NCBI GenBank assembly: GCA_963822405.1 | Contig: CAWGHH010000001.1 | Coordinates: forward strand, 151,296-215,295 | Reading direction: 5' to 3' | From: Candidatus Uhrbacteria bacterium | GTDB lineage: Bacteria; Patescibacteriota; Patescibacteriia; UBA9934 | DNA: 64,000 nt | Part shown: piece by piece, positions 1 through 36,986 of the stretch | Layout: every line of letters starts with the position of its first letter | Position numbering within the stretch: position 1 is the stretch's first letter | Notes under the pieces: model-generated | Told to the model about the DNA's origin: nothing | Databases searched by the model: none | Seen by the model: only the letters and a program-made list of their open reading frames with translations | Position numbers and translations under genes: made by a program

Positions 1-25
1 GAGAAAGAAACCATTTGCTTCGCGT

Positions 26-769
26 TTAGTAAGCGAAGCCGTAACCCGCATGCTCGCAACCGAGCTCGCGGGTGGCCACGTGCCAGAGCGTGGTCATGGC
101 GCTACAATGGCCATCGCTGAAGCGCGACGACTCCTCGTAGACGAAGATTTTCTTCAGGGCAGCGGAGTAGCTGCCGAAGAACTTCGCCTCGCTAGGTTCA
201 CCCGTGGCGATAATCGCCAGGATGTCTTCGGCGGCTTGGTCGGGGTTAAACCCGGTGACCAGACGCTCGCGGCCGCCGTCCGTGGCCACCTTCCAGGCAA
301 GCGCGGTTCGGAGATCTGGAGCCGCCTCGTGGTGGAAACCGCCGTCGGAATCGACGAACCCGATGGCCCGTCCCTCGGTGGCGATTTCGATCGAGAACCC
401 GACCTTCTCCGGGTCGAGACCGATCTCCCGCGCGATGCCGCGATAGCGCAGCGCGCACAGCTGCGCGAGCGGGGTCGGGGACGTGGTCCCCAGGATTGCG
501 GTACCGTTGCGATCACGCAACGTGCCGACCACCATCGGGTCGGCCAGCCCGAACTGGGTCAGATTCGCCCGGATCGGGTGCGCGGTCAGGGCATCCGCCT
601 CCCAGTAGAGGCGCGACGACTCTTCCGCGAGGGCCTTGTACTCGGGGTCGTTTTGGGCCTCGGCCAGCCCAATTTTTTTCTCCTTGGAGATCCGGTCGCG
701 AGCCGTGTAGGCCCGGTCGGAGGCGGTCTTGTACGCCGCGTGCGCGACGAGATATGTATCAATGGACAT
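26..769 (-). CDS. hypothetical protein (247 aa) in GC-rich island
   Basis: Long ORF; ATG at 769 preceded by AAAGGAGAG RBS; no recognisable motif; GC visibly higher than the rest of the window. Confidence 0.5.
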   Translation of the reverse strand: MSIDTYLVAHAAYKTASDRAYTARDRISKEKKIGLAEAQNDPEYKALAEESSRLYWEADALTAHPIRANLTQFGLADPMVVGTLRDRNGTAILGTTSPTPLAQLCALRYRGIAREIGLDPEKVGFSIEIATEGRAIGFVDSDGGFHHEAAPDLRTALAWKVATDGGRERLVTGFNPDQAAEDILAIIATGEPSEAKFFGSYSAALKKIFVYEESSRFSDGHCSAMTTLWHVATRELGCEHAGYGFAY

Positions 770-823
770 TTTCTCTCCTTTCCCGCAATTGTAACCGGCG
801 GGTTCGGGTGATTTTACAGCAGC

Positions 824-878
824 ATCCTCAACGAACGTCTTAAAAAGAATGTAAGTTTTTAAGCAGTTGGTTGAGGAT
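824..878. promoter_or_regulatory. 9-bp inverted repeat (ATCCTCAAC / GTTGAGGAT) around a 37-nt spacer, upstream of the 26..769 gene
   Basis: Perfect IR seen directly at 824-832 and 870-878; sits in the promoter region of a minus-strand gene. Confidence 0.3.
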
Positions 879-929
879 CCCGGCCAGACAATGGTGCATT
901 GTCAGCCGAGATCTTGGGTGCGGTTCCTG

Positions 930-1040
930 CTACCGTTTGGTCAGCAGGAACCAGACAATCTGGGCGTAGGCGAGTGCGATCAAGCACCCGCTTCCGCCGA
1001 AACAGCAGAGGACAAAGATGTCCCCGACCTGGTGGGCCAT
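930..1040 (-). CDS. 36-aa hydrophobic peptide (MAHQVGDIFVLCCFGGSGCLIALAYAQIVWFLLTKR)
   Basis: ATG at 1040 with GGAGG 6 nt upstream; single TM-like hydrophobic stretch; the longer 930..1220 ORF is probably an over-extension. Confidence 0.3.
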   Translation of the reverse strand: MAHQVGDIFVLCCFGGSGCLIALAYAQIVWFLLTKR

Positions 1041-1129
1041 AGCGGCCTCCGTGGTTGTTGTCGAGTGAACGCTCGACGCGTGTTTTGGACTCCGTCGGTT
1101 AATTCCAGACGGCATCCAGCCCGATTTTT

Positions 1130-1495
1130 TTAGCTCTCCAGGGCGGAGAGGAAGAGCGGGAGGAATTCCTCCCACCCTTTTGGGGCGTTCGCCCGCGGTT
1201 CCCGCAGGCACTTGGCCCATGTCTCCGCCGGCGCGGGCCAGTACGGCGCGCGCCCATCACCCAGCACCTGCCGCAACCGGCGGGCGACTTCCTCGTGGAA
1301 GCGCGCCTCTCCGGCCATGTAGACGCCGTGATCCCAGCCGAATTCCGGGCTCGCGGACCAGGAAAAGGCCTCGCCTACGCGAGCGGTTTGCGCCGCCTGC
1401 TGGTGCCGGGTGGCGGCCTCGGCGACCGTCATGAGGCCGTGGTTAACCACGGCCCTCGCCACTGCGGCGGCGATTTCTTTTTCAGTGCGGGCCAT
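1130..1495 (-). CDS. hypothetical protein (121 aa)
   Basis: ATG at 1495 preceded by GGAGG (ttGGAGGccatcATG); the ORF extends to a TTG at 1507. Confidence 0.5.
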   Translation of the reverse strand: MARTEKEIAAAVARAVVNHGLMTVAEAATRHQQAAQTARVGEAFSWSASPEFGWDHGVYMAGEARFHEEVARRLRQVLGDGRAPYWPAPAETWAKCLREPRANAPKGWEEFLPLFLSALES

Positions 1496-1541
1496 GATGG
1501 CCTCCAATCAAGGAACTCGATCGCGCATGAGCTGCGCAGTG

Positions 1542-1594
1542 ATCGGTCCTCATCTGATCACTCAAGGGAGAGAGTCCTTAAGTGATCGGATGAG
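1542..1594. promoter_or_regulatory. Conserved long hairpin in 5' leader, copy A (conserved stem arms, variable apex)
   Basis: Left arm ATCGGTCCTCATCTGATCACTC pairs with AGTGATCGGATGAG (14 bp, one G.U); apex forms an AAGG/CCTT mini-stem; copy B at 2652-2703. Confidence 0.45.
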
Positions 1595-1673
1595 AATCCC
1601 TGAAGTGGTCGAGTGTCGACGAGACTTCAGGGATTTAGAGTGACGTAGTTGCGGAGCGTTAGCCCCACACCCG

Positions 1674-1964
1674 TCACCCACGTTGGTACCAACCCCCGTT
1701 GTTGGTTCGGTGTCCCTCCTTATGGATGGACATGATTTCCTTCCGGAGCTCTTTTCGAGCCACTCCTGGGGTCATGCCTGCTGGCGGAGCGAGTACGAAA
1801 AATTCGTACACCGCTCCGCGGTGGCAGTCCCCGCAGTATCCGTCATCCCAACAGCAGCACATTGTGCCGCCGTGGTTCAGACGGCGCGTTTCCGCGCCTG
1901 TCTGGACGAACCCCTGCGCGAGCAACCGCGCGAGGATAAGGTGGGATCGGGTTTTAATGGACAT
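1674..1964 (-). CDS. Cys-rich small protein (96 aa; CCCWDDGYCGDCH cluster)
   Basis: ATG at 1964 with AGGAGG RBS; dense Cys/His cluster suggests metal binding. Confidence 0.5.
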   Translation of the reverse strand: MSIKTRSHLILARLLAQGFVQTGAETRRLNHGGTMCCCWDDGYCGDCHRGAVYEFFVLAPPAGMTPGVARKELRKEIMSIHKEGHRTNNGGWYQRG

Positions 1965-2150
1965 TTTTCCTCCTTAAGAGGTTGATCGGTATGTCATACC
2001 GAAGCGTATTGATACGATCTCAACGCTCTCAAAATCCACAACCTCCATCATGAATTTTGAGAACGCGCCCTGGTACCGCTGTGTGCGTGGGTACCAGAGC
2101 GAGCGAAATTTTTTGGCAGACTATTCCTGGTCTGCCGGCAGGTACCGCCT

Positions 2151-2378
2151 TTACCAGGCGGTGTTGTTGAAGAAGGACTCCATGTCCTCCTTCGACGCTG
2201 CCCCCATGGGGCAGTCGTGGCTGTCGAGCGCTTCTTTGCGCTCGGCTAAGAGGGACATTCCGTCCCTCTGGAGATTCACCACGGCATACGTGCCGTGGAA
2301 CCCGCGCCACCCACCCGTGAGGGCGAGGAGGACGGGGACGAGCTGGGCGCTCATTCCCCCGTTCGCCACCAGGATCAT
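2151..2378 (-). CDS. hypothetical small protein (75 aa)
   Basis: ATG at 2378, 10 nt downstream of the preceding gene stop (operon-like); contains a CPMG motif. Confidence 0.4.
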   Translation of the reverse strand: MILVANGGMSAQLVPVLLALTGGWRGFHGTYAVVNLQRDGMSLLAERKEALDSHDCPMGAASKEDMESFFNNTAW

Positions 2379-2388
2379 ATGATCCTGG

Positions 2389-2577
2389 TCAGTGGTCTCG
2401 GCCCGGAGGCGCCTTGACCGCCTCGGAGACGGTGGCCGTGGCCACCCCCTCCGGCGGGGCGATGCGGTCGTCGTCCATGACGACGACCGTCGGGGTTGTT
2501 TTTGGGAATTCACGGAGGGCATCCGCGAGGATGCCCTCCACGTTCCGACCATTGAACACCAACAGCTTGGTCGACAT
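2389..2577 (-). CDS. hypothetical small protein (62 aa)
   Basis: ATG at 2577 with GGAGG 5 nt upstream; the listed ORF start at 2643 is a GTG inside the leader hairpin. Confidence 0.4.
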   Translation of the reverse strand: MSTKLLVFNGRNVEGILADALREFPKTTPTVVVMDDDRIAPPEGVATATVSEAVKAPPGRDH

Positions 2578-2651
2578 GGCGACCTCCAATTGAGTGACTC
2601 GATTTTTCCTCATGACTTCCGGCAAACATTTGCCAGCGGTCACGGAATAAC

Positions 2652-2703
2652 ATCGGTCCTCATCTGATCACTCGAACGGAGGATGTTCGAGTAGTCGGAT
2701 GAG
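2652..2703. promoter_or_regulatory. Conserved long hairpin in 5' leader, copy B
   Basis: Same 22-nt left arm as copy A; right arm GAGTAGTCGGATGAGG; apex forms a CGAAC/GTTCG mini-stem. Confidence 0.45.
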
Positions 2704-2806
2704 GAGAGGGGACCAGGCGAAGTGTTCGCTATGTCCCCTCACACGTCACTTTTCTTTTTAGGCTTGCCGGTAGGTTGTGCCAAAGGAAAAGAAAGTGAGA
2801 AAGAAC

Positions 2807-3052
2807 CTAATTGGGACTACCAGTCCCCGCACTCATTGGCGGGGACTTCGAGCCAGCGAGCGTATAGCCCGCCGAGGTTTCCTTTCGTCCCTTCTCGCCG
2901 GTATCCGGCGACGGCCACGTACCAGCGGCCGTCCTGCTGGACGACCGCCCCTGCCTCGGGGCTCTGAGCCAACCGGGCTCAGGGCCATGCCCCGAGGGTC
3001 CGTTTTCGGATCCTTCCTGGGCGGCAAGTTTCATGATTTCGGTTTTTTCCAT
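2807..3052 (-). CDS. Gly/Ser/Pro-rich small ORF (81 aa) behind the shared 67-nt leader; frame uncertain
   Basis: ATG at 3052 immediately after the AGGAGGAAAAA RBS that ends the conserved leader; low-complexity product. Confidence 0.3.
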   Translation of the reverse strand: MEKTEIMKLAAQEGSENGPSGHGPEPGWLRAPRQGRSSSRTAAGTWPSPDTGEKGRKETSAGYTLAGSKSPPMSAGTGSPN

Positions 3053-3055
3053 TTT

Positions 3056-3122
3056 TTCCTCCTTGCACTTTTAGATGCAGGTAATCGGCCCCCGTGTGAT
3101 GGGGTATGGTGTGCCGACCGTC
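3056..3122. promoter_or_regulatory. 67-nt conserved 5' leader element, copy 1 (about 5 mismatches against copy 2)
   Basis: ttcctccttgcacttttagatgcaggtaatcggcccccgtgtgatggggtatggtgtgccgaccgtc; carries the RBS and a CCTTGCA...TGCAGG stem adjacent to it. Confidence 0.5.
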
Positions 3123-3336
3123 TCTGATGAGACGGGTTTAACAAATTCGGAGCAAAGTTGCCTCCGACATAAACTCTCCATCATGAAGAATTTGTGTCGA
3201 AGGACGAGGAAGAGCGGTGCATGTGCTCAATTCCTCGCCTACGGGTGCTAATCATGTCCTTGTTGGACTTCACCGCGCAGATGGGGCACGTGTCAGTTTC
3301 TATAGGAGCTGTAGCCCCAGAAACTGACAAAGAAGG

Positions 3337-3561
3337 CTATTCCTGCGTATTGCCGCAGGAAGGGCAGACGCCGACCTTGTCGGCGTTGCCGAAGGCGCCC
3401 AGATGGGCGCCGCAACTCCAGCACGAAACGTCGTGCTGGATGGTCAAAGGGGGGGCGACTATCACCCCCCCACACTCTGGGCACAAGAGAGCCCCTGAGC
3501 CGTGCCTTATCGGCACGACTCCTGCATTGTGCGTGCAGACCGGGCACTGGATGTGATCCAT
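3337..3561 (-). CDS. double zinc-ribbon small protein (74 aa; four CxxC pairs)
   Basis: ATG at 3561 with AGGAGG RBS inside leader copy 2; CPVC, CPEC, CWSC and CPSC motifs. Confidence 0.5.
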   Translation of the reverse strand: MDHIQCPVCTHNAGVVPIRHGSGALLCPECGGVIVAPPLTIQHDVSCWSCGAHLGAFGNADKVGVCPSCGNTQE

Positions 3562-3563
3562 TG

Positions 3564-3630
3564 TTCCTCCTTGCACTTTTAGGTGCAGGTAATCGGCTCC
3601 CGTATGATGGGGTATGGTTTGCCGACCGTC
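3564..3630. promoter_or_regulatory. 67-nt conserved 5' leader element, copy 2
   Basis: Near-identical to 3056-3122; sits immediately upstream of the zinc-ribbon ORF. Confidence 0.5.
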
Positions 3631-4107
3631 CCGGAAGGGGCGGATTTAGGAAATGGTCGAGCGCATCGGTCACACCGACAGCGTAGTGTCCGCGTCGATG
3701 TCGTTGATTAGGACCTCCGTGTCCTGATCCACTACCAGGCCGAGCCTGATGGCGAGTGCAACCTGTTGACAGGTCGCCAACGTCACGAGCCGGGTGCAGC
3801 CGGCGTGGTGATCGAACGAGAATCGACGCCCGGAGGCATCGACCTGGGGCCCTGCACGGCCCCATCGAGCGCGATCGAGTTCACACAGAGGTTCTCGAAG
3901 GAGACGACCTGGCCGAACACGAAGTTGATACGCATGGTGTCCTCACTCCCGGTTTCCGCCGGGTCGGGATTGTCACGGCTTATAACCAGCTTCGAACTTC
4001 CAGGTGTTGACGATCTCTCGTCAGGGGCTGCGGCAGGTCGAGAAACTCGACTAAACCGACTAACGCCTGAACACCTTTCCGTCCAAACTGGCTACTCGCC
4101 AATCAGC

Positions 4108-4401
4108 TCAGCATTCCAGAACATCCGGTTTGCTGATAATGATTGCTCTCTCTAGAGCTTCGAAGATTTCAAGTGGAGGCTTGAAAACTTTGAAGTACCA
4201 GTGAGATTTGAGGTTAGGCTCGCCGTAGTTTCTGCATTCAGAAACCTCATCAGCAAGCCTGTACGTTTTCGTCAAAAACTTTCGTTTGTGACGCTCTCTA
4301 TGGGTACATTGCGGATGGAGGCCGGAATGTACGCATGGAGAGTTTCTCCGGAACCTCATGCTTGTGCACTTGGCCCGATAAGAATCAAGAAAAGGATCCA
4401 A
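4108..4401 (-). CDS. hypothetical Cys/His-rich basic protein (97 aa) at the GC-shift boundary
   Basis: ORF only; C...C...H...CTH pattern is loosely HNH-like but not diagnostic. Confidence 0.25.
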   Translation of the reverse strand: MDPFLDSYRAKCTSMRFRRNSPCVHSGLHPQCTHRERHKRKFLTKTYRLADEVSECRNYGEPNLKSHWYFKVFKPPLEIFEALERAIIISKPDVLEC

Positions 4402-5051
4402 GGTGTCCTACTGCTTAAGGTCGAGTGATCACAATCGGCACTGAGTGTCGTGTGAGTTCGATGATCTTAAGACCGGACAGCTAAAGATTTAGCTTTTCTT
4501 CTCTCGTTATTTAATTGTGAATGATCTTCCTCTCTCCTTGATGGTCGGCATTTGTGCTTGCAAGTCCATCTGTCTTGGTAAGGAATGCAGGAGGCTCGAC
4601 TGCTTTTTACAGCGTTCAAGCTCCCGCGCACTCATTACCACTTACATTCTGCTAGGGATGTAAGGGGGAGCCGCGTGGTAGCCACTCGTCCTAAGACAAG
4701 TGCAGGTATTCCGGATGCGGTTCCAACGTGATCAGTATCGACTGATCAATCTAGCGAACTGATCTCACTTTCGAGCAATGCCCTCTCTTGGGCACGCGTT
4801 GCTCAAACGGATATCAGTATGTGAAGGTCTTCTTCTTTCGCCCTCTCTCGGGCAATTAAAGAAAGACAGGTTTACAGTTCTTTCGTAGAGAGATCTGCAA
4901 ACCTGTCCTCAGGAGCTTCTACCCTCCATATAATGGTGGGGAACTTCTGCGTCCCATTTTTTACAGTTGGGCTTCTGCTCTCTCTGGTTGTTAAAGGTTC
5001 GGTTTGGTCTAGATCTCTGTGCTTGGTCTGTCGTCCCTTCCTCACCTGACC

Positions 5052-5080
5052 ATCGTACCATAAATTCTAACTTCTGTCAA
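5052..5080 (-). promoter_or_regulatory. Outward-facing promoter TTGACA-N17-TGGTACGAT directed into the ORF-poor region 4440-5040
   Basis: -35 at 5075-5080 and extended -10 at 5052-5060, read on the minus strand. Confidence 0.35.
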
Positions 5081-5146
5081 GCAAGTCCTGGCAATGCACA
5101 TAAAAAAAGGCCAAGGTTAGCAAAGAAAGATATCCCCATTCTGCCA

Positions 5147-5161
5147 TTGCCAATTTGGCAA
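5147..5161. promoter_or_regulatory. Perfect 15-bp palindrome TTGCCAATTTGGCAA over the putative -35 of the TrmB-family gene (candidate operator)
   Basis: Palindrome seen directly; TAAAGT -10-like hexamer downstream; 23 nt before the ATG at 5184. Confidence 0.4.
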
Positions 5162-5183
5162 AGTGTGGTAAAGTGGTCTGTAT

Positions 5184-6032
5184 ATGTACACTGAACTACT
5201 TCAGAAGCTTGGGCTTTCGGAAAACGAGGCCAAAATGTATGAGCTACTCCTTATAAAGGGGGAGTCAAAGGCCGTGGATTTGGTGCCAGAGTCCGGTTTA
5301 GGCCGGGGAAATGTGTATAACGTGTTAACAACGCTGGTTTCTAAGGGGTTAGTGACGGTTACTGCTGGGACTAAGCAGATATATAGAGCGGCGGAACCTA
5401 CAAAGCTTGTTTCTTTGGTTGAAGCCCGAAAACGCGAAGCCGATCGGCTCGATGCCGAATTCAAGGAAGAATTGCCCAAATTAAACTCGACTTTCAATTT
5501 GACCACAGGAAGACCGGCAATCCAGGTATTTGAAGGGTATGAGGGGGCAGAGGAAGTGATTATGGATTCGTTGAACGCGCCGGACGGCATTCTTACTTAC
5601 CTTGATGTTTCAGCTTTAACTGGCGAGTTTGCGGAGATTAACAAGCGCTATCTTAAGAAGCGCATTACAGCAAAAATTCCGAAGTGTATTTTGGCGGCTG
5701 ATACACCGGAGGCACATGCCTTTTTTGCCAATCAAAATACGCCCTTTACTTATATAACGTATTTGAAGGATTACCCAAGTAATTTCAAGACGGCGATGGA
5801 AGTGTACGGAAACAAAGTAACCTATCTAACTCTTTCGGACGAAAAACAGATTTCAGTCATGATCGAGGACGTAAATATCGCTAAAATGCATCGGGCGCAG
5901 TTTCATTATCTGTGGAAGGCAGCCGGGGGAGAGCCTACGCAGCTTCTTTCAGCTGTTTCGCCAACTCCACTCGTGGCTCAAAGACCAGCGTCCGCAGATT
6001 CGGATTCTTTGGATCGGCGTAATAACGCGTAA
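5184..6032 (+). CDS. TrmB-family transcriptional regulator (N-terminal wHTH plus sugar-binding-like C-terminal domain)
   Basis: N-terminal LLQKLGLSENEAKMYELLL...GRGNVYNVLTTLVSKGLV matches the TrmB HTH; C-terminal tail overlaps the convergent gene by 98 nt. Confidence 0.7.
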   Translation: MYTELLQKLGLSENEAKMYELLLIKGESKAVDLVPESGLGRGNVYNVLTTLVSKGLVTVTAGTKQIYRAAEPTKLVSLVEARKREADRLDAEFKEELPKLNSTFNLTTGRPAIQVFEGYEGAEEVIMDSLNAPDGILTYLDVSALTGEFAEINKRYLKKRITAKIPKCILAADTPEAHAFFANQNTPFTYITYLKDYPSNFKTAMEVYGNKVTYLTLSDEKQISVMIEDVNIAKMHRAQFHYLWKAAGGEPTQLLSAVSPTPLVAQRPASADSDSLDRRNNA

Positions 6033-8493
6033 CTACATTGCCGTTGTTAGTTTCCTGCTCTACGGTCGCCAGCATGTTTGCGGTCTCTTTGTTTGTATCA
6101 AAACTGAATGTTAGATCGTTCTTGTTGGGCCTTCCATACCCAACATTTTCCTTGTCGTCTCGTTTTAATGTAAAACGCTTAGCTGTTTTTCCTTGGTCGA
6201 GCATCACTTCTTCTATTCCTGTTATTACACAGCCCAAATCCTCAACATATTTTGTGCCGACCATTAGATCTGGGAATACGTCAGCATAAATAACATTGTC
6301 TTTGGCGGTGGTATCGATGGTGGCTCGCATCATCGCTTCGCCAACCGCAGATCCGCGCATGGCTGGGTCAACATTGAGCGATCCGCCATAAACAGCATTT
6401 TTTCCGAGATCTGACCTAGTATCGAACCGTACGAAGGCAATGACTCGACCATCTTTTTCCAGGATATGGAACTGGGTCGAGTTACCATTATCGTTGAGTT
6501 TAGCCAGGAATCCCTTTCGTAGACCCTCGATCAATTCTGGTTTTTGTCCTTGCCAGTTTGCCTCGAAAATTGAAAGCATTTGTTCTTTCGTCTGCTCATT
6601 AATTTCTGATGGAGCGCGAATTTCTGTTTCTACGCCCTTCATATCCTCAAAGCTCATCTCTTGTGTTCCTTTGAATGAATCCTTGAAGATAGTAGTAAAC
6701 AGCACCAGCTCGTGTCCTTGTTCGGCGAGTTTGGCAGTGGCATTTGCTTGTTCGTTTTCACTTCGGCTTTCACGTACTTTGCCGGCATCCTCTGCCGCGG
6801 TCAGCAGAGAAGTGAGTCTGCGGTTGATTTCAAATATCATTTTTCTGTAGTCGAGATCTTTTATTTTTCCGGCAGTTTTCGCCCCATCAAGCGACTGTAA
6901 AGCATCTCGTCGAGCGAGTGAGGCTTCACGCAATAGCGGTAGGACAGTTGATCGTTCCTGTGCGGGGAGTGCGAGTGCGGTGTTTACTACGCGCTCGCAG
7001 ATCTCAGCGTTGTCTAGGAGCGCGCCAATGATTTCGAGTCCATCTTTGCCCGCCAAACCAATCAGTGACGCAAATGGCTCTCGGTTTTTTTTGATTAACT
7101 CAGGCGCAGACATGAATGGTTGTCTTTGATCCTCTGACAGTTCGAACAGCGTATTGTCCGTTTCTTGGCGGAGCTTATTATCAAAATCAAGAAATGCTTT
7201 ATAGCCTTCTAAGCCTGTTTCTGGCATTCCACGGACATTCGTGAGCTTGCCACCAGCTTCAAAGAAAGAACTAGTGTTGGTTTTGCTCTCTTTAAGATTA
7301 GAATTGCCGCGTTCAAGAACGTTCATGATTGAACGGGGGGTTCCGACTCCGTTCTCGTCCAGCTCGACAATAGCTGCTTGTCCATTCCCAAGTTTATCAA
7401 TCCGGATATTGCGATTTTTAAACTGACGGCCGATGTAGTGTCGAATTGAGTCAATTTGGACGGTACCACTGGAGGACACGCGGACGGTCTCGGCCGTTTG
7501 TCGTCCTTGAGCCTCTTTGCCAAAGTCCGTTTCTGTCAGCAGTCCTTTTTTGAGAATTTCCGGTGCATATTGCGAAATGATCTCAATAGCTCTTGAATCC
7601 ATGGCGTTCGGCGTTCCTTTATGTGAGAATTTTAATCCTCCAACTTCGTTTAACCACTTGCGGGATAGTGGATGATATTCGCCGTTTGTTTTTACAAGTA
7701 ACCTGCCGTTTTTGTCCCGTTTTGCGTCGCCGTAATTTGGGTGATAGAGGAGAGCGGGAATACTGGCTTCAAGAAAACCAAGATCAGTGACGCTGGCTGG
7801 TTGACGAGTGGCTGCGGCGGTTTCTGTACCAAGCGTGCCTGCCGGAACTTCCCATAAACCAAAGTGAAACTCGGACTGTCTGATTTGTTCAATATTTAAA
7901 GCATCTTCACGATATTCAGGTAGATAAAAAAACGCTTTTGGTTTGGTACCGGGATTTTGTTCAAATTCACTTTTTAAAATCGTTTTCTTCCCGGCGAAGG
8001 TATTGCCGAGTCTTTCGAGGCGGGATTGGCCAAGATAATTTATTGCGGGTGTCACGTCTTTGCCAAGTTCACGGATGCTGGCCTGGTTGAACTCTGTGAA
8101 CAGCTTGGCGTCATCTACAATCAATACGCCATCTGTTCTTCGTTCAATAATACCGGCAGTCTCTAGGATACCGAGCACTTCTTTTTGTGCCTCAGACCTT
8201 GGCGTTTTGTGTTCAATGGGTTCAAGAAGTTCTACGGCCGTTACTGACCGGCCTTCATCAAGCGCTTTTTGCATTGAGGTAAGCATCGTTCGGAGTGCCT
8301 CTGGACCGTATTGACGAGCTACGTCTGCGCATTGTTCGGCGATAGTTGCGGGACTTGTCTCTCGTCTCTCGGGCGTAGGTCGCGAAAACTCCCTTGAGTC
8401 GCGATGTCTAAGTCCCGGCGCAAATTCATTCATACCCCCGTATTCTATCCTGCTTTCAGGTGCTCGCCAATAATTGTTACGGCGTTGTCTCAA
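5935..8493 (-). CDS. large hypothetical protein (852 aa) with GNAT acetyltransferase-like fold in the C-terminal third
   Basis: VDPAMRGSAVGEAMM resembles GNAT motif A (R/Q-x-x-G-x-G/A); the rest has no recognisable domain. Confidence 0.6.
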   Translation of the reverse strand: MRQRRNNYWRAPESRIEYGGMNEFAPGLRHRDSREFSRPTPERRETSPATIAEQCADVARQYGPEALRTMLTSMQKALDEGRSVTAVELLEPIEHKTPRSEAQKEVLGILETAGIIERRTDGVLIVDDAKLFTEFNQASIRELGKDVTPAINYLGQSRLERLGNTFAGKKTILKSEFEQNPGTKPKAFFYLPEYREDALNIEQIRQSEFHFGLWEVPAGTLGTETAAATRQPASVTDLGFLEASIPALLYHPNYGDAKRDKNGRLLVKTNGEYHPLSRKWLNEVGGLKFSHKGTPNAMDSRAIEIISQYAPEILKKGLLTETDFGKEAQGRQTAETVRVSSSGTVQIDSIRHYIGRQFKNRNIRIDKLGNGQAAIVELDENGVGTPRSIMNVLERGNSNLKESKTNTSSFFEAGGKLTNVRGMPETGLEGYKAFLDFDNKLRQETDNTLFELSEDQRQPFMSAPELIKKNREPFASLIGLAGKDGLEIIGALLDNAEICERVVNTALALPAQERSTVLPLLREASLARRDALQSLDGAKTAGKIKDLDYRKMIFEINRRLTSLLTAAEDAGKVRESRSENEQANATAKLAEQGHELVLFTTIFKDSFKGTQEMSFEDMKGVETEIRAPSEINEQTKEQMLSIFEANWQGQKPELIEGLRKGFLAKLNDNGNSTQFHILEKDGRVIAFVRFDTRSDLGKNAVYGGSLNVDPAMRGSAVGEAMMRATIDTTAKDNVIYADVFPDLMVGTKYVEDLGCVITGIEEVMLDQGKTAKRFTLKRDDKENVGYGRPNKNDLTFSFDTNKETANMLATVEQETNNGNVVTRYYADPKNPNLRTLVFEPRVELAKQLKEAA

Positions 8494-9205
8494 CCGGTGT
8501 ACCTACGCTCACAAAGTGATATACCCAATCGGCCTCGCTTACTCGCATGTTGATGCAGCCGTGGCTTACTGGTTTGCCGAAGCTGTTATGCCAGTAGGCG
8601 GTGTGAATGTAGATGTGCGGGAAGACGCGCATGTTCCATTTTACGTTGGGTAGATTGTAGTTGCGCGGATCATTCGGTCCGTAGTTCCAGGCGTAAGTCA
8701 TGACCGGATATTTGGCCATGATTGTAGTTTTGCCAACTGGCGTGTGGTAGCCGGGTTTAGCTGTTGAAACAAGAAATGTCTTAACTTGAACGCCGTTTAC
8801 ATAGGCGTAAAGGCGTTGCTCGCTGATATCAACTTTTATATATTGGTCGAGTGGATTCACCGGAACGGTATTCCTGGTACCGAGGGCGACGATGTTGCCG
8901 GTCTCAGGAATGACCGAAATAGTCGGGGCTATTTCCGGTGCATCTGGAAAGGGAACAAAGGATTTTCCGGTAGTACCGTTTGTGATTTGAATTTGTTTTG
9001 CGTATGCGCCGTTAGCCGAAATAACCGTCTTCAGATCGGTCGCTACTGACAGGCCGTAGCTTGATGAGGTTTGGTTAAGCGCTTTGGTCGAGTGTGTAAA
9101 TCCGTTCCAGGAATGGTCGAGGACTGTTAGATCGAACGCGCCGTTATTCATTGGTGCGGCCATGATTTCGTCCTCCGAGTCCTGGTCGAGGTTGCCAACG
9201 AACAC
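8477..9205 (-). CDS. L,D-transpeptidase (YkuD) catalytic domain; probably the C-terminal part of one gene split by a frameshift
   Basis: HGCINMRVSEADWVY catalytic His-Gly-Cys motif; the upstream frame continues into the FG-GAP ORF. Confidence 0.65.
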   Translation of the reverse strand: MFVGNLDQDSEDEIMAAPMNNGAFDLTVLDHSWNGFTHSTKALNQTSSSYGLSVATDLKTVISANGAYAKQIQITNGTTGKSFVPFPDAPEIAPTISVIPETGNIVALGTRNTVPVNPLDQYIKVDISEQRLYAYVNGVQVKTFLVSTAKPGYHTPVGKTTIMAKYPVMTYAWNYGPNDPRNYNLPNVKWNMRVFPHIYIHTAYWHNSFGKPVSHGCINMRVSEADWVYHFVSVGTPVETTP

Positions 9206-9849
9206 ATATACGCCAGATTTTTCTGGAATATTGGCGAGCGTTTCGGTTGCCTTAAGTGTGCCGTCAGCAGCAAAAATTTTAATATCAGCCGGGCCTCCGG
9301 GCCGGCGCCGGTAATTATTTCGGCCTTGCCGTCACCGTCTACATCGCCACAGGCAACGTTAACCCCTGTTCGAAGTTTTTCGTCATAAGCAAAAAAGTGC
9401 ACTTTGAGATATGTCCCATCGGCGGAGAACTCGCGCACTTGCGGACCACCGCCGTACATTGCGCCGGTGACGATGTCATTTGTACCGTCACCATTAAGAT
9501 CGCAAATTGCTACATTGACCCCGCTTTTCATACCGGTTGCGTACGAAGAAAATTCTTTGATAAGTGAGCCGTCGAGCCGCATAACTCGAACAAGCGGTTT
9601 GTTTCCTGAGCCAGCGCCAACGACGATTTCGCTTGTGCCATCAGCGCCAAGATCGCCTACGGCTACGCTACCGGCGGCGTCCCCGGCTTTATCAAACGGC
9701 CTGAACGAAGAGACCAGATCTCCGTTGGGTGAAAAGATTTTCAGCTCAGTGCCAGTTGGTGGAACTGGAGTTTTAGTTGTAGCCGCGAGTGAAGTTAGCG
9801 GTGAAAAGGCGGTACTTACAAGGACTGCGAGCACGATTGTGCGGTTCAT
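9148..9849 (-). CDS. FG-GAP/VCBS repeat protein with signal peptide; N-terminal part of a frameshifted FG-GAP plus L,D-transpeptidase gene
   Basis: Repeats GDLNGDGTNDIV and GDVDGDGKAEIITGAG; product turns to junk after ITGAGP at about 9290-9310, in a ccgggcctccgggccggcgccgg tract. Confidence 0.6.
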   Translation of the reverse strand: MNRTIVLAVLVSTAFSPLTSLAATTKTPVPPTGTELKIFSPNGDLVSSFRPFDKAGDAAGSVAVGDLGADGTSEIVVGAGSGNKPLVRVMRLDGSLIKEFSSYATGMKSGVNVAICDLNGDGTNDIVTGAMYGGGPQVREFSADGTYLKVHFFAYDEKLRTGVNVACGDVDGDGKAEIITGAGPEARLILKFLLLTAHLRQPKRSPIFQKNLAYMCSLATSTRTRRTKSWPHQ

Positions 9850-10225: not shown

Positions 10226-10768
10226 ATGCAAGACAAGGAAATCGCGAAACATAAGCGTGAAGAAATCGCGGAGCGCCATGAGCTGCTCGACAGCTTCCTG
10301 GCTTGGACGAAGACCGCGTCTGCTTGGTCTCTCGCTGGTCTGGGTACGATCGCGGTGGTGTTTGGAGCGGTGCAGGACGTATTGGCTCCGCTTTTGGCTT
10401 GGCTAGACGCGATCATGGGACCGCTCGACGAAATCCTCGTCGGAGCTACGCCCGAGATCATCATCCTTGAGTTTGTGCGTCGGTATACCGGCCACAACTT
10501 GATCGAACAGCTTCGGCTGAAGATCTCGGGGGCGCCTACATGGGTCTTGGCCGCTGTGGCGACCGGTACTGTGGGCGTAATGACTGGCACTGATCTGTCG
10601 GTCTACGTTCCAGTTATCGGGCTCGTTTCCATCCCGTTCCAGTTCATCGATCAGTACATCGTCGGTCTGCCAACGATCCTGATCGGGTTTGAACTTTACG
10701 AACGATGGAAGGCGAACCCCACCGAAATCAAACGTCTCGAAGACTCTACTTCCCGTTCGGGGGAGTAG
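10226..10768 (+). CDS. hypothetical membrane protein (180 aa), GC-rich relative to its flanks
   Basis: TTGACT-N17-TATTAT promoter at about 10172-10200; GGAGG RBS; several hydrophobic helices. Confidence 0.5.
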   Translation: MQDKEIAKHKREEIAERHELLDSFLAWTKTASAWSLAGLGTIAVVFGAVQDVLAPLLAWLDAIMGPLDEILVGATPEIIILEFVRRYTGHNLIEQLRLKISGAPTWVLAAVATGTVGVMTGTDLSVYVPVIGLVSIPFQFIDQYIVGLPTILIGFELYERWKANPTEIKRLEDSTSRSGE

Positions 10769-10786: not shown

Positions 10787-10808
10787 GGGCCGACATCGAA
10801 GTCGGCCC
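10787..10808. repeat. REP palindrome copy 1 (GGGCCGAC-ATCGAA-GTCGGCCC); a half-copy at 10833-10848
   Basis: Perfect 8-bp stem with a 6-nt loop, TTACTA tail. Confidence 0.7.
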
Positions 10809-10844
10809 TTACTATGGGGATCGAAGAGTAGCAGTCGGCCCTTA

Positions 10845-11651
10845 CTACGAAAGCTGCGCGGGCGTGTACTTGGTTTCTGAGAAGTTTTTGTAGAGGTCTT
10901 CCTCGGCTATGATATTGCCAGTGCGTTTGTCGATTGTTTGCCGGCAAATAGTATTTTTTCGGAAATACTTACCGGTTTTTTCGTCTTGAATAAAGGCGTG
11001 GTCTTTTTCGAAAACGTGATAAGTCACTTTTGGTTCATGTTTAGATCGAATCTCGCCGTGCAGATATTTGCTGTCGAGCCACAAGCGCACTTCGAAAGTT
11101 TCAGCCGTGTCATTTTTGAGAGCGAAGTCGAGATAGTTGTAAAAAAGCGTCGCGCCGGTACCAAAGGGGACGACTCTGTTAGAGTCCGGGAATGCATCGA
11201 AGCTGTGATGATGTCGCTCGTGCACAGTGAGCGGCGAGTGAAGCGCTAACCAGTGAAGCATGTTGGCCACGGCGCAAAGGCCGCCACCAACTCCGCGCAT
11301 TACTTCACCATCAGATAGCATCAATCCCTCAAGGTAGCCCTTTCGCGTGGTGGGTTTCCCAACAAGTCGCCAAAACGAGTAGATCTCTCCGGGCTTAATC
11401 AGGATTTTGTCAGCCTTTTTTAGGGCGAGTGCCAGGTTTGTCACTTTGTTGTATTGCAAGGTCATGTCGACCCCCTCGAGTTTTCGCAAGAGCGTCGATT
11501 CATGGGCGTAGACCTTGTGCGGTAACGGTTTCGCCGCTTTTTTTGTGGCGAATTTTTGGGAACCGAAGTACCAAGACCATTGTCGTTTGAGTCTGAGACC
11601 GGTTACTGCGAGGGGATAGAGGAGGGGGTGAGATTTTCGAGAGATGGGCAT
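10845..11651 (-). CDS. VanW-family protein
   Basis: GVGGGLCAVANMLHW resembles the VanW GGGxCQ motif; start placed at M19 (11651) because the upstream part is REP-derived. Confidence 0.5.
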   Translation of the reverse strand: MPISRKSHPLLYPLAVTGLRLKRQWSWYFGSQKFATKKAAKPLPHKVYAHESTLLRKLEGVDMTLQYNKVTNLALALKKADKILIKPGEIYSFWRLVGKPTTRKGYLEGLMLSDGEVMRGVGGGLCAVANMLHWLALHSPLTVHERHHHSFDAFPDSNRVVPFGTGATLFYNYLDFALKNDTAETFEVRLWLDSKYLHGEIRSKHEPKVTYHVFEKDHAFIQDEKTGKYFRKNTICRQTIDKRTGNIIAEEDLYKNFSETKYTPAQLS

Positions 11652-11659
11652 AGGGGAGA

Positions 11660-11680
11660 GGGCCGACATAGAAGTCGGCG
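11660..11680. repeat. REP copy 2 (degenerate right arm)
   Basis: gggccgacatagaagtcggcg. Confidence 0.6.
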
Positions 11681-11695
11681 AGCAAAGATCTGAAG

Positions 11696-11717
11696 GGGCC
11701 GACATAGAAGTCGGCCC
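11696..11717. repeat. REP copy 3
   Basis: gggccgacatagaagtcggccc plus TTACTAC tail. Confidence 0.7.
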
Positions 11718-11723
11718 TTACTA

Positions 11724-12311
11724 CTAGGTGTCAGTATATATCACTGGGTGGCCGTCGTTCCACCATGTATTTGGGTTGTTGACGATATATTGCCGAATCC
11801 GATCGAGATCACCGTTTGCGCGGGTTATGTGTTCGTAATAATTCGTTTGCCATAATCGCCGATCGTAGTATTTGTGATTGATTTTATGCCATCGAATATA
11901 TTCATTGGTCGAAACCGATTTGAACCATTGCATCACCCGCGGTAAATCCGTCGGCGCCGGCAAATTGTTCGTCGTAGGGGCCGACTTCGATGTCGGCCCT
12001 TTCTCATCAAACATTTCCACAATCCCGTGAAAATGATCCGGCATCACCACGTATTCGTGTAAACGTACATTTGAAAATTTGTTTGGTATGGTTGCCCACC
12101 ATTCGGTGATCATTGAACCGAATGCGGTTAAACGGATGTTGACCAGAGGGCCGACATTGAAGTCGGCCCCTACGCCGCGATTGACGATTACGTCGCCGAA
12201 AATACCGTCGCGGTTGTTTGCGTTTAATGTCACGTAATACAATCCGGGTGTCGAATAATCAAATCCTGGCAATCGTGGATTCTTACGTCCAATTTCTTTC
12301 CATGAAAACAT
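11724..12311 (-). CDS. REP-associated tyrosine transposase (RAYT / TnpA_REP, IS200-like HuH Y1), carrying two in-frame REP insertions
   Basis: HuH motif MPDHFHGIV; Tyr motif RRLWQTNYYEHITRANGDLDRIRQYIVNNP, YafM-like; REP copies 4 and 5 lie inside the ORF without breaking the frame. Confidence 0.8.
   Translation of the reverse strand: MFSWKEIGRKNPRLPGFDYSTPGLYYVTLNANNRDGIFGDVIVNRGVGADFNVGPLVNIRLTAFGSMITEWWATIPNKFSNVRLHEYVVMPDHFHGIVEMFDEKGPTSKSAPTTNNLPAPTDLPRVMQWFKSVSTNEYIRWHKINHKYYDRRLWQTNYYEHITRANGDLDRIRQYIVNNPNTWWNDGHPVIYTDT
11978..11999. repeat. REP copy 4 (inverted orientation, loop TTCGAT) inside the RAYT CDS
   Basis: gggccgacttcgatgtcggccc; translates in-frame as KGPTSKSAPTT. Confidence 0.7.
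12148..12169. repeat. REP copy 5 inside the RAYT CDS
   Basis: gggccgacattgaagtcggccc; translates in-frame as RGVGADFNVGPLV. Confidence 0.7.
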
Positions 12312-12419
12312 AAAACCCCATTCGTGAGATCGATTATGCGTCGATCATTTACGCCTGGGGAGTTATGTATATTGCACCATGTTATTTGGGCGGTTCTGGG
12401 TGGTCTGTGCATAACCGCC

Positions 12420-12441
12420 GGGTCGACATAGAAGTCGACCC
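12420..12441. repeat. REP copy 6 (variant GGGTCGAC arms) abutting the stop codon of the dehydrogenase gene
   Basis: gggtcgacatagaagtcgaccc; gene stop at 12442-12444. Confidence 0.65.
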
Positions 12442-13428
12442 TTACTTCACCGCATTCGGTGGTGTCTTTCCGTCCAGGAACGCCAGAATGTTCTCGGCGG
12501 CGGCGCGGCTCATGGCCTGGCGAGCTTCGATGGATGCGCTGGCCGTGTGAGGCGTGAGGACGACGTTTGGGAGTTTGCGGAGATCGTAGGTATCTGTCGG
12601 ATCGCAGTCGATGAGTGGCTCGCACTCGTAAACGTCCAGGCCTGCGCCGGCGATGTCGCCATGGGCGAGAGCGACGACCAGCGCCTTCTCGTCGATAATT
12701 GGTCCGCGCGACGTGTTGATGATGTACGCCGTCTTTTTCATGAGCTTCAGTTCACGCTCGCCAATGAGATGGCGAGTAGACGGCAGTAGGGGAACATGCA
12801 AAGACACGAAGTCAGCATGTTTCAGGAGCTCGTCTTTTTCCATGAAGGTCGCCCCAAATGCTTGTTCGAATTTTTCGTTTGGTTTGATGTCGTTGTAGAT
12901 GATCTTGATCCCGAAACCGTCATGCATTCGTTTGGCTAATGCCTCGCCAATAGCACCTCCGCCAATAATGCCGAGTGTCTTGCCGATTACGTCGACGCCG
13001 AGGAACATCTTTGGACCCCAGCCCCTATACTTGCCGGCGCGCGTGAAATCATCAGTCTCGACTATTCTATGGGCGAGCGCAAAGATAAGCGCGATGGTGT
13101 GCTCAGCGACGGTTTCCGAAACCTCAGGAGCGCGAGCGTTTGTCACCATGATCCCGCGCTTTTTAGCAGCCTCGAGGTCAATGTTGTCGAACCCTACCGC
13201 GTAGTTCGCGATCATTTTCAATTGTTTTCCGGCTGCACGCATGATCGAATCGTCGATCTTGTCGGTCAGAAGCGAAAGGATGATGTCGACCCCTTTTACA
13301 TTCGATTTTAGAACGCCAACTGGAATATTTTTGTTTTCCTCGTACACTTTTACCTCAATATCTGGTCGAGCCCGGAGCATTTTCAATCCTTCATCTGGAA
13401 TATCACGAGTCACGAAAATCTTTATCAT
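12442..13428 (-). CDS. D-isomer-specific 2-hydroxyacid dehydrogenase (glycerate / hydroxypyruvate reductase-like)
   Basis: NAD-binding GIIGGGAIG; catalytic region ...HVPLLPSTRHLI...; C-terminal TPHTASAS motif. Confidence 0.85.
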   Translation of the reverse strand: MIKIFVTRDIPDEGLKMLRARPDIEVKVYEENKNIPVGVLKSNVKGVDIILSLLTDKIDDSIMRAAGKQLKMIANYAVGFDNIDLEAAKKRGIMVTNARAPEVSETVAEHTIALIFALAHRIVETDDFTRAGKYRGWGPKMFLGVDVIGKTLGIIGGGAIGEALAKRMHDGFGIKIIYNDIKPNEKFEQAFGATFMEKDELLKHADFVSLHVPLLPSTRHLIGERELKLMKKTAYIINTSRGPIIDEKALVVALAHGDIAGAGLDVYECEPLIDCDPTDTYDLRKLPNVVLTPHTASASIEARQAMSRAAAENILAFLDGKTPPNAVK

Positions 13429-13430
13429 AA

Positions 13431-14144
13431 TTACTCAATTTTTGAGAAGTCGAGAGACGCGCGAATAATTTTCCAACCATCTTCCACACCGGCTGGCGCA
13501 CCTTTCCAAAGATCAAATTCTACCTGGGTTACGTTTTTATCAGTCGCGTACCAGATAACTTCATTGATTTGATAATCTATAGCGCCGGAAAAAGCGCCTT
13601 TTGCTATGACTACACTCTTCCCATTGATAACTTCATCTGTGAGGGTCACTTTTTCGTCTGGTGGGTAGGCGGCTGTTACTAGATCTTTAAGTGTTTTGAC
13701 GCCCAGCTGCGGAAATTCGCTTTTTGGACGAGTGTCCATGTTGACTGCAAAAATTGGTCCACCACAGTCAACACACGAATGATCCATGAAACCCGGGCTT
13801 ACTACTACTGAATATGTTTGGATTGAATCTAGTGGAGTTAGTTTTTCTTCTCTCAGCTCGCCAACTGCAGACCAGCCGGCAGGATAGGAAAAACCAGGCC
13901 GACGAGTATTTGCTGAGACGACGATTGTCTTAGTTTTCGCGGCTTCTTCACAGGCTTTAGTAACTTTTTCTGATTCTATCTTGATTGCAGCACCGACCTC
14001 AGCCTTACAAGCCGCGGCAATTGCCACCGAGTCTGGCCTGTTAGCATTAAAGAGAACTATGAGAGCAATGGCGCCAACTGACAAGCAAAGAATTGCGCCA
14101 ATAAGCGAGAAAATTAGAAAGGGAGCTTTTGAGGAGGACGGCAT
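13431..14144 (-). CDS. membrane-anchored hypothetical protein (237 aa)
   Basis: N-terminal TM helix; no recognisable motif. Confidence 0.45.
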   Translation of the reverse strand: MPSSSKAPFLIFSLIGAILCLSVGAIALIVLFNANRPDSVAIAAACKAEVGAAIKIESEKVTKACEEAAKTKTIVVSANTRRPGFSYPAGWSAVGELREEKLTPLDSIQTYSVVVSPGFMDHSCVDCGGPIFAVNMDTRPKSEFPQLGVKTLKDLVTAAYPPDEKVTLTDEVINGKSVVIAKGAFSGAIDYQINEVIWYATDKNVTQVEFDLWKGAPAGVEDGWKIIRASLDFSKIE

Positions 14145-14333
14145 ATTATTTTATTGCAGCTACGGCTGCCTCGGCGCAGGCTTTTGCAATGGTGTTAGCG
14201 TCGACTCTTGTTTGATAAAGCTGAACTAATAATACGAGTACCGCAATAAGCAGACCAAGGTTCCATAAGAGGAACATGATGGCCCAGCCTTTGCGTTTGT
14301 TTGGTTGTTCGGGCATATGCCCCTAAGTATACG

Positions 14334-18467: not shown

Positions 18468-18950
18468 ATGATGGCACATATGAAAAAATTACTTATTGGT
18501 TTGTGCGCGGTGACGCTTCTTGGGGCTGGGTGCGCTAGCTCTGATTTAAGCGACGCTACGCATAATAGTGACGGCTCACCATTTGTTCCGGTAGCCCAAG
18601 AACCGGCTAAGCTTGGTCCTCAACCTGGATATCCAGGGGATAATCCAGATGTGACCGTGCAGGGCGAGTGGGCAGGTTTTGTGCTGGCTGTAGCTGACAA
18701 CAAGTCTTGTGACGAAGCTAAACTGTACTTAACCGCGGCTGTCCAACCGGCATTTACGGCTGAGGCATGTAAACAGATGAACGATTACATCATGACCGTG
18801 CCAAGTGTTGATTGGTCGAAAACTGTCACCGCGGCCGATAATAAGAAAGTTACGCTCTACAGCTATAAGGGCGAGTTATTTGCTGAGTACTTACTCGGTG
18901 TAGACGGAGCTTGGTATTTGAACACTCCGGTTTGGGTAGCGAAGTTGTAG
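18468..18950 (+). CDS. putative lipoprotein (160 aa)
   Basis: Signal peptide with lipobox LLGAGCASS. Confidence 0.5.
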   Translation: MMAHMKKLLIGLCAVTLLGAGCASSDLSDATHNSDGSPFVPVAQEPAKLGPQPGYPGDNPDVTVQGEWAGFVLAVADNKSCDEAKLYLTAAVQPAFTAEACKQMNDYIMTVPSVDWSKTVTAADNKKVTLYSYKGELFAEYLLGVDGAWYLNTPVWVAKL

Positions 18951-32447: not shown

Positions 32448-32490
32448 AGTATAGCAAAAAAACGCCCTTTTGTCAATGTTTTGGGGCTAA
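32448..32490 (-). promoter_or_regulatory. Near-consensus promoter of cassette 2 (TTGACA-N17-TGCTATACT plus conserved upstream TTAGCCCCAAAACA)
   Basis: Minus strand reads TTAGCCCCAAAACATTGACAAAAGGGCGTTTTTTTGCTATACT. Confidence 0.6.
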
Positions 32491-36980: not shown

Positions 36981-36986
36981 AGAATT

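Follow-up and report, generated by a model that had tools for sequence, protein, structure and literature searches.

The first 4 kb of a 64,000-nt stretch of DNA from a Candidatus Uhrbacteria bacterium (assembly GCA_963822405.1, contig CAWGHH010000001.1, positions 151,296 to 215,295 of the forward strand; this whole stretch is referred to as the window, and coordinates are counted from its first letter) hold a GC-rich island of nine genes. The island is a one-directional string of cassettes, in which genes led by Shine-Dalgarno (SD) sequences alternate with reusable intergenic modules. When GC content is calculated over 400-nt intervals, it ranges from 0.55 to 0.68 across positions 1-4000 and from 0.44 to 0.49 from position 4200 on; overall, it is 0.59-0.61 between position 1 and about 4000, and approximately 0.48 elsewhere. 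A scan of the 64 kb reveals no 2-kb interval outside the island with a GC content above 0.57. The tetranucleotide L1 distance of positions 1-4000 to the remainder is 0.436, compared to 0.137-0.229 for every other 4-kb interval, and the GC content at third codon positions (GC3) is 0.80 for the island genes, compared to 0.48 for 23 host genes. An initial annotation of this DNA had described an island far richer in GC than the window as a whole, and that description holds. The contrast between the island and the remainder of the window is genuine and, statistically, extreme.

The island also differs from its host in how translation appears to start. A GGAG or GAGG sequence lies 4-19 nt 5' of eight of eight island starts, compared to 3 of 48 host starts, and the minus strand is the orientation of all credible island genes, both as first annotated. 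Throughout the window, host starts have AT-rich sequence directly 5' and often a TATAAT-like box just before the ATG, which suggests that host initiation is leaderless or non-SD. The composition switches between approximately 3950 and 4290, in agreement with a boundary first placed near 4100. Within this junction zone (3936-4290, with no strand assigned), GC content drops from about 0.60 to 0.48 and homology to L016, a JGI metagenome contig of 196,749 bp, comes to an end.

Given so abrupt a switch, the junction could be an assembly chimera or contamination, with DNA of a GC-rich organism fused to a contig of the candidate phyla radiation (CPR), a possibility that the initial annotation had itself raised. 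Three Logan short-read contigs match the island, all of them from run ERR12037365. L001 matches window positions 1-1547 and L015 matches 1565-2492, while L014 (5886 nt) corresponds to 3368-9252, so that it spans the change in composition and includes a further 5 kb of host genes. The same backbone is found in L016 with GC-rich genes at the same site beside trmB, and L021, from another metagenome, has the island arrangement seen in L016. Because L014 crosses the junction and because this backbone is also joined to such genes, and to the same gene families, in L016 and L021 from other metagenomes, a chimera is very unlikely; the island families are, moreover, specific to Patescibacteria. In its favor, apart from the abruptness, are the short length of the Logan contigs within the island (926-1595 nt) and the fact that both indels by which the two assemblies differ, 2 nt at about 2408 and 1 nt at about 3849, fall in the island, at lesion sites of two genes described below. 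We regard the chimera as largely refuted already. The lesions themselves are partly polymorphic or partly assembly error: the extra C at about 3849 in L014 restores the frame of the affected gene but not its length, and the truncation of that gene and the split of the gene at 2151-2577 hold in both assemblies.

The inventory of nine genes, all on the minus strand, was built with homologue searches by exhaustive protein search, phmmer and other methods. At the left edge is g247 (26-769), an intact gene for a 247-aa protein of a Patescibacteria-restricted family. Its 22 homologues are all in CPR-type contigs, and its relatives sit in Paceibacterota and Uhrbacteria metagenome-assembled genomes. 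In other genomes, the gene occurs singly or as a tandem pair amid housekeeping genes and is GC-richer than its flanks. g247 has no Pfam family; its structure is predicted very confidently (predicted local distance difference test score, pLDDT, 96.3), and the predicted fold has no convincing neighbor in the PDB and is not a recognised one. Next to it is a 36-aa hydrophobic open reading frame (ORF; 930-1040) with a GGAGG site, also called as a gene on L001; we found no homologue of it, and its status as a gene is uncertain. g121 (1130-1495) encodes 121 aa and has a sole relative, P0037 in L016, from which it differs with a ratio of nonsynonymous to synonymous divergence (dN/dS) of 0.71.

The two Cys-rich or zinc-ribbon proteins of the island are g96 and g74. 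g96 (1674-1964) is an intact 96-aa Cys-rich protein with the motif CCCWDDGYCGDCH. Its homologue is a 98-aa ORF at L016 8796-9092 that is 66.7% identical and keeps the CCCWDDGYCGDCH motif, and the dN/dS of 0.10 between the two indicates that g96 is a real, constrained gene, although profile scans against Pfam and NCBIfam give no family match. g74 (3337-3561) is a 74-aa double zinc ribbon with four CxxC motifs and sub-cutoff matches to Pfam DZR and Zn_ribbon_3 and to an NCBIfam zinc-binding family. Four of the products named in the initial annotation (96 aa, 74 aa, 36 aa and 247 aa) are present as described; g121, two of the broken genes described below and the repeated intergenic modules had been missed. 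Likewise, the description of the island as one of small Cys-rich and zinc-ribbon genes holds for g96 and g74 but not for the remainder, since they are two of nine genes.

The gene at 2151-2577 had been annotated as an operon that pairs a 62-aa with a 75-aa product. Because homologues of 136-162 aa extend across both ORFs, the two are the halves of one frameshifted gene of about 137 codons. The repaired product is a single domain, predicted with a pLDDT of 91.6, that forms a Rossmann-like domain with a core of about 100 aa, and its best structural matches are CARF domains. On the strength of this model, the product has a CARF-type Rossmann-like fold. The sequence LVANGGT follows a beta-strand in the repaired product, and we take it to resemble the CARF ligand-site motif. 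By its predicted structure and by analogy, the protein is likely to bind cyclic oligonucleotides or to be a ring nuclease, and either function would point to a part in conflict with mobile elements. The functional analogy is to stand-alone CARF ring nucleases and to the ring nucleases of viruses and plasmids (PMC12409355 and PMC13148439), and it suggests that a cyclic-oligonucleotide signal would be bound or cleaved. Like the stand-alone CARF proteins and CRISPR ring nucleases Crn1, Csx15, Csx16 and Csx20, the repaired product is a single Rossmann-like domain; unlike them, it matches no profile of a described family and has no type III CRISPR-Cas system or cyclase for a neighbor in six contexts, and the copy in the window is frameshifted. 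The CARF fold is the only functional hint in the cargo, and the copy here is broken. The CCC...YCxxC tail of P0062 was considered as a sign of a fusion between the CARF family and g96; the BLASTP comparison was not significant, and the resemblance is one of motif only.

Two further genes are inactivated. The first (2817-3052) is a pseudogene of a family of about 80 aa (EGSENGPLG...WYVAVAG...GGLYARW), whose homologues P0033-35 cross both of its frames and are 57-59% identical to it by phmmer and 62-65% identical in a MAFFT alignment; this domain also forms the C-terminus of proteins of 324-350 aa. Its lesions are a 1-nt deletion in a run of C and an in-frame TGA at a position occupied by S, R or K in the homologues. 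That TGA is recoded here (genetic code 25) was rejected as an explanation, given that TGA terminates both g96 and its L016 homologue. The second (3670-3935) is a remnant of a family of about 300 aa that retains the N-terminal 88 codons, truncated and, in the window assembly, frameshifted. It is 76-80% identical to residues 1-88 of a 329-aa protein of L016. This Patescibacteria family has at least 193 members of about 300 aa and is full length in L016 (329 aa) and in L027 (303 aa). Its FDHH, DxDxDT and GGG motifs had suggested a DHH phosphoesterase; a PDB profile search gave no match, and this assignment is left as speculation. Whether P0060 and P0061 connect the 80-aa domain to the 300-aa family by fusion was also examined, and the idea was rejected on an hhalign probability of at most 1.4%. 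In L027 (962-2511), and also in L028, a gene of the 300-aa family is directly followed by a homologue of the CARF-fold gene, while in the window the remnant and the CARF gene are kept apart by the two cassettes with leader D1, described below; the two genes may be a functional pair.

With three of nine genes broken (the CARF-fold gene and the members of the 80-aa and 300-aa families), the island seems to be decaying rather than working as a unit. Scans of the island proteins and of their neighbors in L016 and in a further related contig, L017, against Pfam, PHROGs, NCBIfam and PADLOC return generic zinc-ribbon and helicase matches only. The cargo, which includes g247, the CARF-fold protein, the Cys-rich g96 and a zinc ribbon among others, is not one system, and the set does not recur together elsewhere. 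Nor is the suggested small-protein-based system borne out, as several of its short products are pieces of longer genes that have been disrupted. The case is also a caution for other GC-rich DNA, in which an apparent 'small-protein operon' can be a larger gene that has undergone a frameshift.

The gaps between island genes are long (95-290 nt) and are made of a few reusable modules: an AT-rich hairpin (D6), hairpin A, hairpin B and the SD-bearing leaders D1 and L3. All of these read on the minus strand in the window. The modules are 90-95% conserved between genomes, far beyond the synonymous sites of the backbone, yet they stand next to different genes. The module 5' of g121 (1496-1673) comprises hairpin A (approximately 1596-1638), hairpin B (1539-1599) and leader L3 with its SD sequence. 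Hairpin B and L3 up to the start codon are 89.5% identical over 105 nt to L016 8697-8801, which precedes the g96 homologue, whereas the counterpart in the window precedes g121; the module is also 91% identical to L016 10407-10492. Leader D1 is 94 nt long including the SD sequence and has a consensus fold of two hairpins plus a hairpin at the SD sequence. Its first copy (3053-3146) lies 5' of the 80-aa pseudogene, its second (3561-3654; 86% identical to the first) lies 5' of g74, and an approximately 91% identical sequence in L016 (10043-10096) lies upstream of the g121 homologue. D6 stands 3' of the 80-aa pseudogene (2735-2813) and is similar to window 1-17. The D6 copy after g247 is 94.5% identical to L016 9108-9161, where it stands after the g96 homologue, and it also indicates that the array extends further to the left of the window.

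Hairpin B was modeled with a covariance model, R1, built from five copies. Its base is 8 bp long and is followed by a conserved 1x1 mismatch and by an upper helix whose length varies, for an overall length of 61-92 nt. In the five copies, 97.9% of cells are paired and five pairs show compensatory change; the covariation score is reached by 0 of 500 shuffles. The model scores the copy in the module 5' of g121 at 86.8 bits and a second strong copy, 5' of the CARF gene (2649-2708), at 73 bits; these two share an exact 22-nt repeat, located at 1542-1563 in the former. A diverged copy 5' of g247 (817-880, which is inverted repeat I1) scores 24.5 bits (E 3e-4 to 7e-4) and retains the base helix, the 1x1 mismatch and the upper helix. 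R1 adds eight copies to the original five, bringing the number of sense-strand copies in the window, L016, L017 and L027 to 13. There is at most one copy per gap, not every gap has one, and all copies are on the gene strand. In L016 and L017, reversed PIN and HepT/MNT toxin-antitoxin modules have a copy of hairpin B on either side. Outside the islands, R1 finds no copy, whether in the remaining 60 kb of the window or in 12 further loci.

Sense scores of hairpin B are about twice the antisense scores, and its G-U pairs favor the sense strand. In sense RNA, the hairpins would probably serve as processing, stabilising or terminating signals. Long imperfect, mismatched hairpins between co-oriented genes and 5' of SD-led starts recall the RNase III hairpins of phage T7 early and late transcripts, and the G-U asymmetry, which favors sense RNA, adds to the likeness; this is an analogy only, and the sequences are unrelated. 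The modules also resemble mosaics of repetitive extragenic palindromes (REPs) and bacterial interspersed mosaic elements (BIMEs), in that short palindromic units stand in varied order between cistrons, are better conserved than the adjacent genes and, by analogy, probably act on mRNA stability or termination. They differ from such mosaics in being confined to islands and absent from window 4100-64000 and 12 other loci, and the host has an unrelated REP-like family of its own near a Y1 transposase at 10.8-14.7 kb. Rfam 15 gives only sub-threshold, microRNA-type noise for the hairpins, the leaders and the region at 4290-5045, and a hammerhead or other ribozyme in the leader that contains CUGAUGA was rejected, as Rfam offers no support for it. 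In IMG/VR, a 16-mer of the hairpin has two chance matches with no hairpin at either, and the D1 pattern has no match. In JGI metagenomes, a two-arm hairpin pattern is found only in L021, which is from the same organism as L016.

The island is separated from trmB by a region (4290-5080) that reads toward it on the minus strand. A promoter scan finds a host-type promoter, TTGACA-17-TACGAT, running from 5080 to 5052, and the approximately 750-nt block that follows it (4290-5045) contains no credible ORF. The whole region is 75-95% identical to L016 870-1790, with indels that are not multiples of three. The minimum free energy of the 750-nt block has a z-score of -7.4 relative to shuffled sequences, and 30 of its 211 predicted pairs show compensatory change. 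These features make the block a candidate for a large structured RNA or a long leader. The whole array would probably be transcribed from the putative promoter at 5080. On the far side of the promoter, the trmB-like gene (5184-6032, plus strand) and a convergent gene for an 852-aa GNAT-domain protein (5935-8493, minus strand) have ORFs that overlap by 98 nt (5935-6032); the TrmB reading frame may have been wrongly extended in its low-complexity tail.

Comparison with related genomes bears directly on the origin of the island. Window 4294-5537 is approximately 75% identical at the nucleotide level to L016 1779-391, an alignment that covers a trmB-like gene, an 856-aa gene and the non-coding block. 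At the same site, L016 has the full-length 329-aa version of the remnant and the homologues of g96 and g121, with a different cargo and order overall. Its plus-strand island genes have a GC3 of 0.76-0.87, most with an SD sequence, while the reversed PIN toxin-antitoxin genes interspersed among them have a GC3 of 0.38-0.49 and no SD sequence. The related islands (L016 1825-10900 and L017 1-5331) also hold a 671-aa DEAH/HA2 helicase, proteins of 507 and 595 aa without a family match, and reversed PIN and HepT/MNT toxin-antitoxin modules; given the low GC3 of the toxin-antitoxin modules and their lack of SD sequences, these islands are compositional mosaics. The synonymous divergence (dS) from L016 is 0.49 for g121, 1.1 for the remnant and 2.5 for g96, while trmB in the backbone is saturated. 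Such unequal values fit cassettes of different ages, some of which were swapped after the hosts diverged.

The contrasts in GC3 and in SD use, the different cargo of L016 and the unequal synonymous divergence argue for horizontal acquisition, as the initial annotation had supposed. The other possibility is that these are native, vertically inherited genes whose high GC3 is kept up by GC-biased gene conversion at a recombination hotspot or by selection. In favor of this, the island stands at the same locus in two genomes whose backbones have diverged by about 25%, with order partly kept (300-aa gene, g96, g121) and a GC3 of about 0.8 persisting in both, and the repeated modules would promote recombination. 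However, vertical descent leaves unaccounted for the all-or-none contrast in SD sequences (8/8 versus 3/48) and the different cargo in the two genomes, the dS of some cassettes is well under that of the saturated backbone, and genes of the g247 family are GC-rich outliers at unrelated genomic positions too. We consider it decidedly unlikely that the genes are native.

As to the source of the DNA, a phage or plasmid remnant had been proposed at the outset. A specific version would be an early or leading-region anti-defence island whose small SD-led genes formerly acted against host immunity, with the CARF-fold protein as a cyclic-oligoadenylate sponge or ring nuclease. Small co-directional genes with strong ribosome-binding sites and structured leaders would suit such an origin, as would the foreign composition, the toxin-antitoxin modules and DEAH helicase that are neighbors in relatives, and the predicted stand-alone CARF fold, since viruses and plasmids are reported to encode ring nucleases (PMC13148439). 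Searches with blastn and tblastn, however, return no match in INPHARED (50,697 phage records) or PLSDB (72,556 plasmid records). IMG/VR has no relatives of the three island families searched, PHROGs gives weak zinc-ribbon matches and nothing meaningful, and the CARF-fold protein has no structural match in BFVD. Phage hallmark genes are absent from the island, scans of the island and the related loci find no replication or conjugation Pfam domains, and no integrase or other tyrosine recombinase is found in the 64-kb window, L016, L017 or L027; the first annotation, too, had noted no integrase or phage structural gene in the part of the island within the window. A GC content above that of the host is, in addition, unusual for a phage. 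In the contexts examined, homologues of g247, the CARF-fold protein and the 300-aa family stand singly amid Patescibacteria housekeeping genes. The original suggestion of a phage or plasmid remnant is not upheld by these results, and we rate it as quite unlikely.

Instead, detectable homologues of the cargo are found only in Patescibacteria-type contigs, several of which have an overall GC content of 54-58%, and the named homologues, the L016 protein included, are all from a 'Patescibacteria group bacterium' or similar in NCBI. On balance, we think it probable, with appreciable doubt, that the locus is a strain-variable, cassette-style accessory island that was imported from GC-richer Patescibacteria and is now decaying. 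The cargo would have been drawn from a pool of GC-rich, SD-using genes in circulation among Patescibacteria, with the GC-richer members as its source, and cassettes would have been gained, lost and reshuffled through recombination between the conserved intergenic modules.

This reading has precedent in a survey of 125 Patescibacteria genomes, which described hundreds of genomic islands and found that most transfers occur within the phylum (PMC12455944). The locus resembles those islands in being a block of deviant composition at a fixed site with a variable, mostly hypothetical cargo, in the toxin-antitoxin modules of its relatives and in having donors apparently within the phylum. It differs in its very regular organisation with reusable hairpin and leader modules, in its SD-dependent starts within a host that is apparently leaderless or non-SD, and in having no integrase, tRNA or direct repeats in view. 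Of the features that define a genomic island, deviation in composition and codon use and a content that varies at the same locus in a relative are both found here; an integrase, tRNA or direct repeats at the borders are not found in the part in view.

Several observations weigh against an imported, decaying cassette island. There is no tRNA within 5 kb of the island, and no flanking direct repeat, recombinase or transposase is visible in the window; the left border lies outside the window, and the array runs on leftwards. If the array was ancestral to both genomes, its GC3 of approximately 0.8 and its use of SD sequences should have drifted to host values. The frameshifts may in part be assembly errors, given that the assemblies disagree at two sites. 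The CARF assignment comes from a predicted structure, with no CARF-family sequence-profile match in Pfam, NCBIfam, PADLOC or a PDB profile search, and none of six contexts (the window, L017, L022, L025/26 and L027/28) has a type III CRISPR-Cas system or cyclase near the CARF-fold gene. Finally, the hairpins could act as DNA instead of RNA.

Hairpins that act as DNA would be central to an integron-like capture platform, in which they would be attC-like sites, the cassettes would be promoterless and read from the upstream promoter, and the recombinase would lie out of view. The cassettes are indeed co-directional, and a strong promoter stands upstream of them. Hairpin B occurs at most once per gap and in constant orientation, including on both sides of the reversed toxin-antitoxin modules of L016 and L017, and it combines a conserved base and a 1x1 mismatch with a top of variable length. 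The diverged copies, CCTCAAC...GTTGAGG and CCTTAAC...GTTAAGG, come close to the R''/R' boxes of attC (RYYYAAC/GTTRRRY). Chromosomal integrons, too, typically carry toxin-antitoxin cassettes and a cargo that varies while the locus stays fixed. On the other hand, the tyrosine recombinase that such a platform would need is absent from all four sequences searched, although the far end of the array is out of view, and the best-conserved copies (CTCATC/GATGAG) have GAT in place of the cleavage triplet GTT. Furthermore, leader L3 and its SD sequence move with hairpin B and not with the next gene, which is at odds with a crossover at the hairpin's 3' end, and every cassette has a long SD-bearing leader. 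An integron-like platform is possible but unlikely.

Set beside sedentary chromosomal integrons and clusters of attC sites lacking integron-integrases (CALINs), the locus shares co-directional small cassettes of unknown function with an upstream promoter, an imperfect hairpin with a conserved base and variable top in many gaps, and interspersed toxin-antitoxin cassettes with cargo that varies at a fixed locus. It departs from them in that no IntI was found, the hairpin base is just an approximation of R''/R', with the main copies lacking GTT, SD leaders segregate with the hairpin, and there are extra module types (D1, D6 and hairpin A). We know of no report of integrons in Patescibacteria, and a literature search combining integron, attC and Patescibacteria returned incidental papers only.

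A related possibility, to which we give only a small share of our confidence, is an undescribed gene-capture and expression platform of Patescibacteria that consists of the island together with the promoter and the 750-nt structured RNA. Cassettes drawn from a GC-rich, SD-using pool that spans the phylum would be inserted and exchanged at the hairpins and expressed as one processed transcript. If this were true, the hairpins would be functional analogues of attC, served by an unrecognised recombinase or an RNA-assisted mechanism, and the way in which the cargo keeps its foreign composition and type of translation start would be accounted for.

Genomic islands are a familiar kind of element; what this one adds is the hairpin-punctuated architecture, the minimal CARF-fold family and the adjacent candidate structured RNA. 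Patescibacteria genomes are tiny and streamlined, and gene acquisition and expression in them are poorly understood. At this locus, two types of composition and of translation start adjoin within a single chromosome, and the regular architecture of cassettes and hairpins is common to related genomes. The locus also yields several well-folding dark protein families, among them g247, a minimal CARF-fold protein without CRISPR and the widespread 300-aa family. If the hairpin modules are recombination or processing sites, the locus would offer a simple model of accessory-gene turnover in CPR bacteria; if they are not, it would still be a well-documented case of import within the phylum followed by decay.

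Several other features were observed in the remainder of the window. The segment 9920-10768 contains, just after a tRNA-Ala gene, a 180-aa ORF with several hydrophobic stretches (10226-10768), a GGAGG site and a GC3 of 0.67, unlike its neighbors; it may be another imported gene beside a tRNA. Two patches of raised GC content (29850-31140 and 47290-48980; 0.53-0.57) have ORFs with a GC3 of 0.69-0.76, no Pfam match and no SD sequence, and they may represent further imported genes, or fast-evolving ones, that differ in kind from those of the island. The REP-like family of the host consists of seven copies of the palindrome GGGCCGACATCGAAGTCGGCCC(TTACTA) at 10787-14657, around an ORF resembling an IS200-type Y1 transposase (11724-12311), an arrangement like that of REPs and REP-associated tyrosine transposases (RAYTs). 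A promoter-like repeat of about 30 nt, which reads TTGACAAAATGGCGTTTTTTTGCTATA on the minus strand, is present in at least four copies (31116-31147, 32445-32476, 36984-37015 and 47182-47213). A perfect 37-nt inverted repeat has its copies 42.5 kb apart, at 18972-19008 and 61550-61586, each within a larger local palindrome (18936-19045 and 61525-61611, respectively). Lastly, the window contains two tRNA-Ile genes with the anticodon TAT (31338-31411 and 58657-58733), which is unusual for bacteria; the former scores only 40.5 bits with the Rfam tRNA model.

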